Under the pieces are notes generated by a model. The model was not told the origin of the DNA. It made no database searches and was given only the letters and a program-made list of their open reading frames with translations. From the IMG/VR virus record IMGVR_UViG_2718217863_000003: DNA of 42,690 bases; one strand, 5' to 3'. Shown one piece after another: positions 31,926 to 38,360 of this stretch. Numbering within the stretch: the stretch's first letter is position 1; the number at the start of each line of letters is the position of its first letter. Made by a program: the position numbers and the translations under genes. This DNA comes from a virus. Taxonomy: Duplodnaviria > Heunggongvirae > Uroviricota > Caudoviricetes.

Positions 31926-32081
31926 TTACTCCTCAGGTTCGTAAGCTGTGAAGACAGCGACCTCCGTCTGGCCGGTTCGGATTCGTACCTCGCAGAGGTC
32001 TTTCCTCGTTACCAGTGCCGTCACAATGACGGTTAAACAGATGACGATCAGGGCGATTAACATCGCCTTTTGCTGCTTCAT
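31926..32081 (-). CDS. hok: Hok/Gef-family type I toxin (HokD/RelF-like)
   Basis: MKQQKAMLIALIVICLTVIVTALVTRKDLCEVRIRTGQTEVAVFTAYEPEE; AAGGAG RBS. Confidence 0.9.
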   Translation of the reverse strand: MKQQKAMLIALIVICLTVIVTALVTRKDLCEVRIRTGQTEVAVFTAYEPEE

Positions 32082-32340
32082 AGCCTGCTTCTCCTTGCCT
32101 TTCGGCACGTAAGAGGCTAACCTAGATTTGCCGTTCATAGATTGAGCCTCAGATTAATGTTAAGCGTCTTGCAGGACGCGTAATGTTAACTGGGGCTTTT
32201 CTCTATCTGCCTTTTGGTGTTCATGCCTGAGACAGATAGCCTCAAGCACCCGCAGTCATTCTACTTAACTAAGATTTCCCCGCAAACCGTTTTTGTCCGG
32301 CACAGTAAATATCCAACTAAACCAATGGCGTTCGCTGTAT

Positions 32341-33448: not shown

Positions 33449-33805
33449 TTATTCAGTTCTGGATTTTGTCGCCCTGCGTATCCGCGCTTTCGCGTTACGC
33501 TCAATCTGAATTAGCTTTTCTATATTTTTTCGCCTTTCCCGCTCCTCCTGACGCAAGAGCCTTACATCATCTGCCAGTCTGGTTTCTCTTTTCGCCACAG
33601 AGAGCATCCAGTCAAATGGCTCCACAACTGCACCGCAGATTTTACAGCGGACCTGACGCTCTTTTTCGTCAACCCGGACAGAGGCGTGATGACAATATGG
33701 TCTTTCCGATGGCTCATAAAGAAAATTAACCTGATTACGAGGGTCATCCTCTTTTACCGGAAATAAAACGATATTGCTTAACTCATCCTCTGGTTTTATT
33801 TCCAT
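33449..33805 (-). CDS. hypothetical Cys/His-containing protein (118 aa)
   Basis: internal ATG with AAGGAGAGGAG RBS; ...CHHASVRVDEKERQVRCKICGAVVEPFDW... Confidence 0.5.
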   Translation of the reverse strand: MEIKPEDELSNIVLFPVKEDDPRNQVNFLYEPSERPYCHHASVRVDEKERQVRCKICGAVVEPFDWMLSVAKRETRLADDVRLLRQEERERRKNIEKLIQIERNAKARIRRATKSRTE

Positions 33806-33862
33806 GCTCCTCTCCTTTGATGCGAATGCCAGCGGTAATTGAAGCCTGATAGCTAATTTCAC

Positions 33863-34285
33863 TCACAGTACCGCCTCCTGAAAATTACCCTGATAGAAAG
33901 CCAGTACACGCTGCATAGCTTCACTCTTCCGGCACTCGCGACAGATTATGTTTAGGCGACTGTCGTAGCGACGTATTTCTCCGTCAGGTAACGACCAGAT
34001 AAGGTCCGGATCAACCACAACCGGTTTCTTCAGCTTTGCCCTCGATAATTTTTTGCGGGCATTTTGCCAGTCTTTACGAGCCTGTTCAGACGGGAATAAC
34101 CCGTAGCCAGAATTGTATACATCGCCACTGGCAACCAGCTCTCTGGCCAGAACGCTCATCAGATATCTTGTTGCCCCAGTTTTAGCTTCCAGTTGTCGTA
34201 ACGTCTCGCGCCCACTCTGGCGTACGAGTTCAAGAACCTGTCCTTTAATTTTTTCCCGCTCTTCTTGTGTAAAAACTTTTGCCAC
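33863..34285 (-). CDS. hypothetical protein (140 aa) downstream of replication gene
   Basis: ORF only; synteny. Confidence 0.45.
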   Translation of the reverse strand: MAKVFTQEEREKIKGQVLELVRQSGRETLRQLEAKTGATRYLMSVLARELVASGDVYNSGYGLFPSEQARKDWQNARKKLSRAKLKKPVVVDPDLIWSLPDGEIRRYDSRLNIICRECRKSEAMQRVLAFYQGNFQEAVL

Positions 34286-34325
34286 AAGCCCTCCTGAAAA
34301 TTACCTCATGACCAGAAATTAACAC

Positions 34326-35402
34326 TTACCCCCTGAAGCCCGGCGGAATTTCGTTATCCGGTTCAGAAATATGATTCACACAACGCTGGTTGTTCGTGCC
34401 GCTTACCGGGAGCAGCCAGGGGTTTTCAAAATTCCGGTCCGGTCCAAAAAACGTCGTCGCTCGCTGAACAAATTCCGTTCCCGTTTTCCCGGTAGCCGCA
34501 AGGTATCTTGCGTAACGCCTCACGCCATCCAGCATGGCCTCTGGTGGCACCCCCTCGCGTAATCTGGCTTTCCAGGCACTGAAAGCGGATTTCTTCGGGT
34601 TTGCCCCGGCACGCAACGGGTATTCCCGCCAGACCTGTTCGAACACATCAGGATAATCCACTCGTCCCACAGGCTGCCCGGTGTTTTCCGGGACTACCCG
34701 ATCGGCTTCCCGCTGAATGGCGGAATCGGCTTCAGGCTGCTGAAGTTGGTGTGATTGCTCCTGCCTTGCGGTCATCACCTGCTGCACAGCGCCCGAATCG
34801 GCTTTCAGCGCATACGCTGAATCGGCTTCCGGTGTCGTGCCTGCGGGCTGGCCAGGAGTGACGGTCTGAACATCCCCTGCCTGGTTCGTGGCGTTTTTTA
34901 CGCCATGGACCATAGTGTTTTGATCTTCTTGATCTGTATCTTTATCTGTATCTTTATCTGTCGTGACTCGTCGTGACATGTGCGTGACATTTCGTGACTC
35001 GCCGTGACAATCGCCATTTTGTTCCCGCTTTCTTTCCCTCTCTCGCTGCGCCCTCTTGCGCTCTGCCGGAGATTTTGCGGTTTGCGAAATATTGCCGTTG
35101 TCCTCTTTCAGCACCTGGCGTTTTTCCCATCCAGTGATTAAATCACCATCAAGTACCCGCCCCTGCATCGTCTGCAAAATTGAATCAATTACCTCTTCTG
35201 TCACGTCGAGCGCACTTGCCAAATCTTCTGTCGTGACATCAATGTGACCTCGCGTGACATTTCGTGACGCGCTCACCAGGAGGTGGATATACACTGCCAT
35301 CACTGTTGCAATTGGCTGCCCTGACACCCTGGCAATTGTTCGCCACTTAGGGTCATTTGGCATGTCATGCCATAATCTGAGCCAGGCGTTAGCCATACTC
35401 AC
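34326..35402 (-). CDS. replication initiator (lambda O-like / Rac YdaU-like) with internal origin iterons
   Basis: 358 aa; position after cro/ydaT; two iteron clusters within the gene; low-complexity linker DKDTDKDTD. Confidence 0.6.
   Translation of the reverse strand: MSMANAWLRLWHDMPNDPKWRTIARVSGQPIATVMAVYIHLLVSASRNVTRGHIDVTTEDLASALDVTEEVIDSILQTMQGRVLDGDLITGWEKRQVLKEDNGNISQTAKSPAERKRAQRERERKREQNGDCHGESRNVTHMSRRVTTDKDTDKDTDQEDQNTMVHGVKNATNQAGDVQTVTPGQPAGTTPEADSAYALKADSGAVQQVMTARQEQSHQLQQPEADSAIQREADRVVPENTGQPVGRVDYPDVFEQVWREYPLRAGANPKKSAFSAWKARLREGVPPEAMLDGVRRYARYLAATGKTGTEFVQRATTFFGPDRNFENPWLLPVSGTNNQRCVNHISEPDNEIPPGFRG
34921..35010. repeat. origin-like iteron cluster 1 (CGTGAC repeats plus 12-bp ATCTGTATCTTT tandem repeats)
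   Basis: GTCGTGACTCGTCGTGACATGTGCGTGACATTTCGTGACTCGCCGTGACA. Confidence 0.6.
35196..35275. repeat. origin-like iteron cluster 2
   Basis: GTCACGTCGAG...GTCGTGACATCAATGTGACCTCGCGTGACATTTCGTGACGCG; shares exact 17-mer GCGTGACATTTCGTGAC with cluster 1. Confidence 0.6.
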
Positions 35403-35467: not shown

Positions 35468-35893
35468 TCAATGTACTGCCACAGCATTTCCTGCCGGGCC
35501 ACCACGGTTCATCTGATTGAAACCGGCGATTGCCACTGCGACAAAATCATCAGCGTCTCTCACCAGTCGCTCCCGCGTCTCCACCAACTCCCGAAAATAA
35601 GCTGAACTGTGGCTGCGCATTCTGGCCACCAGCAAAGGTGGCATTGCCTTTTCGATCGCTGGTAACAACGCCTGAATTTTTTCAACTGCATCAGGGGTGT
35701 CTTTCTCCACCCAGCGGAAAATTTTCTGGGTATTGCGAGCCAGGGCTTCCGGATGGCTGTCGTCATACAGTTCCGGGAACGTCATTCCCAGCTCGAAATA
35801 CGCTTTGGTAATTTTCGCAGCCGGTACTTTTTCGCCGTCCGGATGCGCCCAGGCATTCATCGCCATGCGGATGTGTTCATGCTTGATTTTCAT
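35468..35893 (-). CDS. YdaT-like / CII-position regulatory protein
   Basis: MKIKHEHIRMAMNAWAHPDGEK...; AAGGGGG RBS; follows cro-like gene as in Rac ydaS-ydaT. Confidence 0.55.
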   Translation of the reverse strand: MKIKHEHIRMAMNAWAHPDGEKVPAAKITKAYFELGMTFPELYDDSHPEALARNTQKIFRWVEKDTPDAVEKIQALLPAIEKAMPPLLVARMRSHSSAYFRELVETRERLVRDADDFVAVAIAGFNQMNRGGPAGNAVAVH

Positions 35894-36119
35894 GAATCCC
35901 CCCTTGGTTAGAAGGCGGATTATGATCAGAACCGGGAATGACAACCGTCGGTATGTGTAACTCATATTTGAGCGCCCCGGCAGTGACTGCCTGAATTAGC
36001 AACGCCCATTTCCACGGAACCTCTTCCCCCCACATGCTGACTGTGGTTTTTGACGTTCCTAGAGCTGCGGCTGTTTTAACAACTCCGCCAAAATAGCCTA
36101 ATACTTCTGATTTTTTCAT
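35877..36119 (-). CDS. Cro/YdaS-like HTH regulator
   Basis: 81 aa, MKKSEVLGYFGGVVKTAAALGTSKTTVSMW...; divergent from cI; GGAG RBS. Confidence 0.7.
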   Translation of the reverse strand: MKKSEVLGYFGGVVKTAAALGTSKTTVSMWGEEVPWKWALLIQAVTAGALKYELHIPTVVIPGSDHNPPSNQGGIHENQA

Positions 36120-36210: not shown

Positions 36211-36849
36211 ATGAGCAAGCAAACTATATCTGAACGCATAACCCAACGTATGCATGCGCTAAACCTGAAAGGCAAAGACCTTGTCAATGGCACTGGCGCA
36301 TCAAAAGGCTCCGTAAGTCAATGGATGAACGGTGGAGGAGCGCCGTCCTCGCGTTACATAAGTTCACTGGCAAAAATATTGAAAGTAAACGAAAATTGGC
36401 TTCTTAATGGAGGAGAGTTAAATACAGGTGATTCGCTTGATCTATCTTTACCGCCGATAAAAACGGTTCCGCTACTATCACTTCAGCAGGCAGCAAGCTG
36501 GAGTGATTATATGAAAAATTCCTCAATAACCTCTTGTGTGCAGCTTGTCGGAGAAATCCCGGTCAATACCTTTGCAGTTGTTCTAGAGAGTGACAGTATG
36601 TCAACATCTGGTGGGGGAGTTTCCATCCCAAATGGTTCAACAGTTTTTGTTGATCCCGATCGAACCGTACAACCAGGAAATATTGTCCTTGCCTTACCCA
36701 AAGGGACCACAACACCTGTCATTCGTAAACTGGAGATAGAAGGGCCGGATATTCTTTTAGTCCCCACGAATCCTCGCTACCCTTCAATTATGCTGGATGA
36801 TCTATCTTGCATATTGGGCGTATGCTTTAAAATTCAACAAGATATTTAA
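36211..36849 (+). CDS. cI: CI-like repressor (HTH plus LexA/S24-like autocleavage domain)
   Basis: 212 aa; N-terminal HTH ...LKGKDLVNGTGASKGSVSQWMNG...; C-terminal S24-like; no SD. Confidence 0.85.
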   Translation: MSKQTISERITQRMHALNLKGKDLVNGTGASKGSVSQWMNGGGAPSSRYISSLAKILKVNENWLLNGGELNTGDSLDLSLPPIKTVPLLSLQQAASWSDYMKNSSITSCVQLVGEIPVNTFAVVLESDSMSTSGGGVSIPNGSTVFVDPDRTVQPGNIVLALPKGTTTPVIRKLEIEGPDILLVPTNPRYPSIMLDDLSCILGVCFKIQQDI

Positions 36850-37792: not shown

Positions 37793-38360
37793 TAGATAAC
37801 CAACGAAGCTAAGGTTGGTAATTAAGGAGTTCTCCACGGGTGAGGTGGAGTGCGTGCGCCGGACACGGGTGAGCATCCGGCACTGACAGTTTACTGAAAG
37901 GATATTTCCCTGAAAAGTCAGACCATAACGCGAAAGCGCACGGCGAGGTAGCTGGTTCATAGATAGCCTGTCGTTAAATTTTCGTCGACCGTGCGCTTCC
38001 GGTTGTGGCAATCCGCGAAATGGCGCGGCGGTAAGTATGGCGGGGTTATTCCTTCCCCCGTTGAGGACACCGGGTTGTCAGGTTGACCATACGCTTAAGT
38101 GACAACCCCACTGCAACGCCCTCTGTTATCAATTTTCTGGTGACGTTTGGCGGTATCAGTTTTACTCCGTGACTGCTCTGCCGCCCTTTTTAAAGTGAAT
38201 TTTGTGATGCGGTGAATGCGGCTAAGCGCACGCGGAACAGTTAAAACCAAAAACAGTGTTATGGGTGGATTCTCTGTATCCGGCGTTAATTGTTAACTGG
38301 TTAACGTCACCTGGAGGCACCAGGCACCGCATCACAAAACTCATTGTTGAGGGCGCGATA

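Follow-up and report, generated by a model that had tools for sequence, protein, structure and literature searches.

A replication origin embedded in the gene for its own initiator is a layout already known from phages λ and SPP1. The λ origin lies in the middle of gene O, where iterons are followed by an AT-rich tract (PMC7466680), and each iteron is an 18-bp inverted repeat that is bound by two O proteins (PMC6022878). In SPP1, oriL lies inside gene 38 and comprises direct repeats together with an AT-rich unwinding element, to which gp38 binds; a plasmid with oriL replicates in vitro (PMC6316719). Here we analyze the replication initiator gene of a λ-like E. coli prophage contained in IMG/VR record IMGVR_UViG_2718217863_000003, a stretch of 42,690 nucleotides that we refer to as the window and whose positions are used throughout. 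Two arrays of a 6-bp core, an AT-rich tract and a hairpin lie within this gene, and we conclude, with a probability of roughly 0.8, that they form the replication origin of the prophage. This layout has not been described for the widespread family to which the initiator belongs, and literature searches returned no description of the family's origin. What is unusual is that the sequence encoding the initiator's own DNA-binding domain contains an iteron array under strong DNA-level selection.

Results

Two in-phase hexamer arrays in the initiator gene

The initiator gene (34326-35402, minus strand) was taken from the list of open reading frames. It has a GTG start and encodes 358 residues, and the NCBI name for its homologues is 'phage replisome organizer'. 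An earlier note on this DNA had reported two clusters of CGTGAC repeats within the gene that share an exact 17-mer. Both clusters are present where they had been placed, and the shared 17-mer, GCGTGACATTTCGTGAC, is found at 34982-34998 and again at 35252-35268. On the coding strand the core reads GTCACG. The cluster further into the gene, which we label array B (34962-35008, minus strand), has five cores, with CGTGAC starting on the plus strand at 34962, 34972, 34983, 34993 and 35003 (spacing 10/11/10/10 bp), and encodes residues 132-147 (CHGESRNVTHMSRRVT) of a disordered linker. Array A (35232-35268, minus strand) has four cores, of which three are CGTGAC on the plus strand (starting at 35232, 35253 and 35263) and one is the variant TGTGAC (35243). 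Its spacing is 11/10/10 bp. Array A encodes residues 45-57 (ASRNVTRGHIDVT), which in an AlphaFold2 model form the end of helix 3 and the loop and first β-strand that precede the helix-turn-helix. Both arrays thus have one core per helical turn (10-11 bp), and Tandem Repeats Finder detected a 10-bp-period array at 34960-35009. A single core in the inverted orientation (CGTGAC on the coding strand; 35200-35205, plus strand) begins, reading along the coding strand, 32 bp past the first base of the final array A copy, and it specifies D66-V67-T68, where the predicted recognition helix begins.

Over both strands of the whole window there are 23 CGTGAC sites, compared with 18.9 expected from shuffled sequences. 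Nine of these 23 fall within 307 bp of the initiator gene, where ∼0.14 would be expected (Poisson estimate ∼4e-14); chance does not account for the clustering of the hexamers. No further array of the CGTGAC hexamer was found anywhere in the window. The initiator gene contains no DnaA boxes, the nearest match to TTWTNCACA being at 34266-34274, and the total for the window is at chance level. A promoter scan gave one weak plus-strand site inside array B, also at chance level.

The AT-rich tract and the hairpin

In the orientation of the gene, array A is followed after ∼220 bp by array B, then by an AT-rich tract and a hairpin. The tract, a candidate DNA unwinding element, occupies 34917-34961 and at 27.5% GC contains the lowest 40-nt window of the gene. 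It is purine-rich on the coding strand, with the form (GATAAAGATACA)n, and encodes DKDTDKDTDQEDQ. Two GATC sites lie within it (34922-34925 and 34931-34934). Tandem Repeats Finder reports a 12-bp tandem repeat, TCTTTATCTGTA on the plus strand, in 2.9 copies at 34927-34961. The earlier note had placed one of its clusters in a low-complexity linker encoded by 12-bp tandem repeats; array B in fact directly abuts the repeat and does not lie inside it. The adjacent AT-rich element that the note had proposed looking for is the tandem repeat itself. Together, array B and the tract encode residues 132-160. Directly after the tract is an imperfect inverted repeat with a 13-bp stem (34882-34912), which includes the perfect 6-bp core TGGCGT-AAAAA-ACGCCA.

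Comparison with SPP1, λ and other origins

Our reading of the SPP1 sequence is that the linker region of gene 38 contains five repeats of the form GAAACGACA or GAAAAAGACA, spaced 10-12 bp apart, and then a run of AT-rich sequence. As proposed for the prophage, the SPP1 origin lies in an organizer gene, in the linker that follows the N-terminal DNA-binding domain, and the repeats precede the AT-rich sequence in the same order as array B and the tract. The SPP1 repeat core also contains AACG, as does the CGAACG class of the initiator family (described below). Unlike the prophage gene, gene 38 has no upstream counterpart of array A. SPP1 has a second origin, oriR, elsewhere in its genome, whereas the window has no such second array. 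SPP1 also encodes its own loader and helicase (gp39 and gp40), whereas the prophage encodes neither. Relatives do have a downstream helicase gene.

The resemblance to λ and the Stx phages is one of layout. In these phages, as here, the initiator gene lies in the right operon after cII, and the origin, putative here, is in the middle of that gene, between the parts encoding the DNA-binding and C-terminal domains. The iterons are followed on their downstream side by an AT-rich tract of ∼40 bp in an interdomain linker, and, as in Stx phages with six-iteron origins, the number of iterons varies among relatives. The λ iterons, however, are dyads of 18-19 bp in one contiguous array, whereas the prophage has 6-bp direct cores at 10-11 bp spacing, without a dyad, in two arrays ∼260 bp apart. 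Furthermore, λ has gene P, whereas the prophage has no loader gene, and the prophage initiator is not a homologue of O, having no Pfam match and matching PHROG replisome organizer, DnaD-like and primosomal families. The parallel with the λ origin inside gene O drawn in the earlier note therefore holds for the arrangement of iterons, AT-rich tract and interdomain linker, but not for the initiator or the iterons themselves.

Iteron plasmid replicons differ in having iterons of 17-22 bp, a WH1-WH2 Rep protein (Rep_3 or RepA type) and host DnaA boxes in the origin, whereas the prophage has 6-bp cores, no match to a Rep family and no DnaA box in the gene. Two clusters of short (6-8-bp) repeats recognized by the element's own initiator occur in phage P4 (ori and crr) and in the origins of the staphylococcal pathogenicity islands (SaPIs). 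The P4 and SaPI initiators are helicase or primase-helicase proteins, unrelated to the winged-helix organizer, and their repeat clusters lie outside the sequence coding for the DNA-binding domain. In the SaPIs the AT-rich region is between the two repeat sets, whereas in the prophage it is outside both arrays, after array B.

The cores are constrained as DNA

Within each array the core is read in all three frames, as GTC-ACG (V-T), G-TCA-CG (S-R) and GT-CAC-G (C/G-H). Codon use was compared among 21 distinct homologues with GTCACG arrays, which share 58-74% N-terminal identity and come from hosts of several orders. Each position was scored as the fraction of gene pairs with the same amino acid that also use the same codon. 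This codon identity was 1.00 at V49 (GTC), T50 (ACG), G52 (GGT), H53 (CAC), V56 (GTC) and T57 (ACG) and 0.90 at S46 (TCA), against a mean of 0.42 elsewhere (core versus elsewhere, Mann-Whitney p = 2e-5). Residues that are equally invariant in the protein (R9, L10, P15, T22 and R82) scored only 0.18-0.25. Codon choice is likewise free at R51 (0.28), where the third base falls in the spacer between two cores. At the inverted core the codon for V67 is GTG in every gene pair that shares valine at this position. Because the hexamer is found in three frames and the synonymous sites within the cores are frozen, the constraint acts on the DNA and not on the protein.

Conservation across the initiator family

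A prior protein-based scan of viral contigs had returned only relatives that were 99% identical and so uninformative for conservation; a scan of genome contigs supplied the necessary diversity. The family sample, with one genome per species, consisted of 80 loci from α-, β- and γ-proteobacteria with 33-98% identity. An array was defined as at least three copies of a hexamer at 10-11 bp spacing, with no more than one copy containing a mismatch. Arrays of the same hexamer were present in both zones at 45 of the 80 loci, in zone B only at 22, in zone A only at 3 and in neither at 10. Array B, with 3-6 copies, is therefore found at 67 loci and array A, at the same position in the gene, at 48. Several of the loci scored as having only array B possess an irregularly spaced array A. 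In control windows taken from the flanking DNA of the same loci, 26 of 844 contained any array and none had one hexamer in two arrays. Arrays A and B lie a median of 258 nt apart (range 157-282), and 253 of the core spacings across the family are 10 bp and 56 are 11 bp.

As one condition that would refute its proposal, the earlier note had named loss of the repeats from related prophages that keep the protein, and the proposal survives this check. Homologues with only 33-70% N-terminal identity retain both arrays at the same positions together with the AT-rich tract, and the genomes in which the arrays are kept include those of Pseudomonas, Aeromonas, Ralstonia, Bordetella, Burkholderia and sphingomonads, among others. 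For example, both arrays, the inverted copy and the tract are all preserved in the genes of two initiators with 70% N-terminal-domain identity, those of Pseudomonas phage phi1 and Aeromonas phage pAEv1818. Roughly half of the GTCACG-class loci have the inverted core, at an unchanged position. The C-terminal domains and the downstream genes vary, in that the prophage in the window has no downstream replication gene of this kind, phi1 has 'replication protein P', and pAEv1818 and phage Hennie have a DnaB-type helicase. The N-terminal domain is the sole constant part of the protein beside the arrays.

The tract is similarly widespread. A run of AGATAA, AGATAC or AGAGAA repeats, purine-rich on the coding strand (72% purine), directly follows array B in nearly all of the 67 loci that have this array. 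The mean minimum GC fraction over 30 nt is 0.28 for the tract, compared with 0.58 for the loci, and this includes hosts of 60-69% GC. At 25 of the 67 loci the tract is the lowest-GC 30-mer of the locus sequence analyzed, which was 1.9-5.9 kb in length and mostly ∼5.4 kb. Since the family tract repeats have a period of 5 or 6 nt and are read in varying frames, the tract, too, resembles a feature of the DNA. Across the family, array B is followed at 40-55 nt by a GC-rich hairpin, whose loop is usually 4 nt. Perfect stems of at least 6 bp occur at 48% of loci compared with 14% of control segments (Mann-Whitney p = 1e-11). Six loci (L001, L091, L095, L097, L099 and L108) have the sequence CCCCCC-TTA/TAA-CCCCCC, encoding PPxPP, just after the tract. 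This sequence is present in many relatives, often followed by a G-run that is able to pair with it, and is a recurrent form of the post-tract hairpin.

The hexamer differs between loci

The arrays of the family fall into the hexamer classes GTCACG, CGAACG, GCAACG, GTGACG and GTAACG, with ACTACG at one locus. These classes track N-terminal-domain clades, and the two arrays always switch together. All conform to NNN-ACG, usually followed by C, with variable flanks in the sequence logo. The peptide encoded by array A differs between classes (SRNVTRGH, S-NTERGRTQ and S-ATRGNVA). One locus, L149 (a metagenome-assembled genome of Pseudomonadota, JBCCAC010000001.1), has a mixed array A of three CGAACG cores and then two GTGACG cores, located ∼+78 to +135 from the DPK codon, and its array B is GTGACG-like. 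L149 may represent an intermediate stage in the change from one specificity class to another.

A reverse search of IMG/VR for three GTCACG cores at 10-bp spacing, with no protein criterion, gave at least 120 stretches, against ∼1-2 expected by chance by our own estimate from 18 specified bases. Of the 80 loci that were fetched, 60 lie in a gene of the initiator family. The remainder are mostly in the linkers of other organizer-like proteins, followed by purine-rich tracts, and a few are intergenic. Five unrelated viral contigs (L170, L180, L189, L195 and L234) have in-phase GTCACG arrays of 3-4 copies in apparently noncoding DNA, some near AT-rich sequence. The design of one hexamer per turn seems to be used by other replicons too.

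The initiator gene is present at ≥80% coverage in 1647 of 5426 complete E. coli genomes (∼30%). It is mostly annotated 'hypothetical protein' or 'phage replisome organizer', with no origin annotated.

The initiator protein and its genomic setting

Along its whole length the initiator matches phrog_3729, 'replication initiation protein' (E = 7e-257). Weaker PHROG matches are to 'replisome organizer' (E = 7e-6 and 1e-4), 'DnaD-like helicase loader' and 'primosomal protein' families. A Pfam scan detected no family at E ≤ 0.1 except a subthreshold match to HTH_Crp_2, and Pfam and NCBIfam scans together detected no domain beyond a weak match to the tail of DnaT. A profile of the family was aligned by hhalign with a protein that passes PF09681 (Phage_rep_org_N), with 95.9% probability (E = 6e-9). 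This protein also passes DnaB_2, and a GTCACG array with a GATACA tract after it is present in its own gene.

An AlphaFold2 model of residues 1-165 contains an N-terminal winged-helix DNA-binding domain (∼residues 1-95; coding region 35118-35402, minus strand) with a predicted local distance difference test score (pLDDT) of 85-96 over residues 11-90. The linker that follows, including the residues encoded by array B and the tract, has a pLDDT below 50. The modeled helices comprise residues 4-16, 18-27, 31-47, 58-65 and 69-79 and are followed by a β-hairpin; residues 69-79 are predicted to be the recognition helix and residues 80-90 the β-wing. A Foldseek search of the PDB with this N-terminal model gave generic MarR-type winged-helix matches only, none with E < 1e-3 and none a close relative.

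The C-terminal 24 residues of the initiator (335-358; 34329-34400, minus strand) form a DnaT-like tail that matches positions 156-179 of the 179-position NCBIfam DnaT profile (E = 7e-4). A phmmer search against PDB sequences matched this tail only, and weakly (chains 6aep, 2ru8 and 9zbt). The Pfam DnaT domain PF17948 is found in many homologues. Within the stretch that encodes the C-terminal half of the protein (34701-34832), the 11-mer GAAGCCGATTC is present on the coding strand in three exact copies and one variant, GAAGCCGATCG. The copies are 24 and 96 nt apart and in a single frame, encoding EADS or EADR peptides. Because the spacing keeps the frame, these copies look more like a peptide repeat or a recent duplication than a DNA site.

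By their PHROG matches, the genes that precede the initiator gene are a cI-like repressor (36211-36849, plus strand), a cro-like gene (35877-36119, minus strand) and a cII-like gene (35468-35890, minus strand), and the next gene after it is Ren-like (33863-34285, minus strand). The initiator gene occupies the slot that gene O has in the early-right operon of lambdoid phages. Downstream of it, at 33449-34400, neither a helicase nor a helicase-loader gene was found; this region contains the Ren-like or DNA-binding protein and then a PHROG of unknown function. Presumably the prophage has an initiator-only replication module and makes use of host helicase loading.

Other features of the window

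Rfam searches identified several RNA elements elsewhere in the window. The antisense small RNA DicF (RF00039, 76.7 bits) is at 38135-38186 on the plus strand, just beyond the immunity region. A match to the sok antitoxin RNA (RF01794, 112 bits) at 32076-32251 on the minus strand implies a hok/sok-type toxin-antitoxin locus inside the prophage. Two copies of the small RNA STnc100 (RF02076, 132-138 bits) are at 27994-28182 and 28458-28651 on the minus strand, beside a tRNA-Met gene at 29002-29077 on the same strand. The ALIL pseudoknot, a frameshift element of IS3-family insertion sequences, was matched at 282-398 on the plus strand (RF01497, 120 bits), indicating an insertion sequence at the left end of the window.

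Discussion

The repeats, their phasing, the purifying selection acting on them as DNA, their conservation in the family and the clade-wise change of the hexamer provide the framework for a mechanism in which initiator binding, unwinding, looping and the route of the helicase are modeled on λ and SPP1. The N-terminal winged-helix domain would bind each 6-bp core (GTCACG here; family consensus NNNACG, usually followed by C). With one core per turn, the bound initiators would be aligned along a single face of the DNA, forming an oligomer on array B, a complex that array A, ∼260 bp upstream, may join by looping. The resulting strain would open the adjacent purine-rich AT tract (34917-34961), and the C-terminal part of the initiator would recruit the replicative helicase. 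Since no phage helicase or loader gene is present, this helicase is probably the host's, recruited via the DnaT-like tail. On this reading, array B and the tract, probably with the hairpin, are the ancestral core, and array A is an accessory array that arose within this proteobacterial subfamily.

Several observations weigh against the assignment of these elements as the origin. The initiator has no Pfam match, there is no similarity by hhalign between SPP1 gp38 and the family profile, and gp38 itself has no match to PF09681. About 12 distant members of the family keep array B but have no array A, so array A could be regulatory and not part of the origin. The link of the initiator to DnaT is a weak match of 24 residues. 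The minimum of the cumulative GC skew is at 36-38 kb, 1-3 kb away from the arrays; this measure is confounded by the switch in transcription direction and was not used. Finally, the plasmid collection contains no small plasmid with this module as its sole replicon. The module is found there only in prophages within large replicons and in two circular Pseudomonas phage-like records of 51 kb.

Could the arrays instead be operators, with replication starting elsewhere? Bound by the initiator or by another phage protein, they would serve in autoregulation, copy control or exclusion by blocking transcription or titrating the initiator. Such a role is most plausible for array A, which is located within the gene's transcribed 5′ part and is dispensable in distant relatives, and plasmid iteron arrays are known to act both as origin parts and as control elements. 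On the other hand, array B is always joined to a tract of very low GC content, even in high-GC hosts, and usually also to a hairpin. This is the anatomy of an origin and is not needed by an operator. The window also lacks any other array of the hexamer, and gene 38 of SPP1, which has the same layout, is a proven origin. We therefore regard operators without an origin as unlikely. A different binder of the hexamers, either a host factor or another phage protein in place of the initiator's N-terminal domain, would account for the GTCACG arrays that are found beside quite different organizer-like proteins and in the intergenic DNA of other viral contigs. A conserved host factor, however, would not predict that the hexamer varies by N-terminal-domain clade among hosts of three proteobacterial classes. 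The N-terminal domain and the arrays also travel together while neighboring genes and C-terminal domains are swapped, an argument weakened by the location of the arrays inside the gene for that domain. On balance a different binder is very unlikely.

The repeats might alternatively reflect constraint on a repeated peptide (SRNVT...VT), with the DNA repeat a by-product, given that both clusters encode SRNVT and VTT and that array A encodes a conserved part of the winged helix in which R51 and G52 are invariant. This explanation was rejected because the reading frames and the synonymous sites contradict it. Each array contains the hexamer in three different frames, and 4-fold degenerate third positions are 100% fixed within the cores but free at other invariant residues. 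Moreover, the 3-6 copies of array B encode different peptides, and the peptide of array A changes with the hexamer class. We consider its chances negligible. A further alternative concerns only the hairpin and the T-rich plus-strand stretch (34882-34930), which might be an intrinsic terminator antisense to the initiator gene and not part of the origin. A scan does flag a 13-pair stem followed by TAGTGTTTTG on the plus strand, and the pairing of hairpin and tract is conserved. The number of terminator-like sites in the region, four against 2.6 expected, is nonetheless near chance. In most relatives the tail is broken by C and A (TCTTTATCT, CTCTTCTC), making it a poor terminator tail, and no antisense promoter was identified. 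A terminator at this position thus appears improbable.

A more elaborate version of the origin, which we advance tentatively and think rather doubtful, is that it is bipartite, with both arrays needed and array A looped to array B over ∼25 helical turns. The NNN-ACG code would then have been switched at least five times, with each switch coordinating both arrays, the array A peptide and the DNA-reading residues. If this were true, the family would hold natural orthogonal initiator-origin pairs and, unusually, a binding site whose nucleotides also encode part of its own binder. In this version it is also possible that the DnaT-like C-terminal domain reads the AGA-rich tract, with its period of 5 or 6 nt, in single-stranded form, much as DnaA reads DnaA-trios.

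Placing the origin within a stretch of 390 bp would permit automatic annotation of origins across a large family of proteobacterial prophages, with a signature made up of the two in-phase arrays of hexamers, the purine-rich AT tract and the hairpin. With five or more classes, the hexamers offer candidate orthogonal initiator-origin pairs for experiments, and the arrays cleanly exemplify strong DNA-level selection superimposed on protein-coding sequence. An origin of this kind, if the assignment is correct, would explain the incompatibility of replication modules and their exchange among lambdoid prophages.

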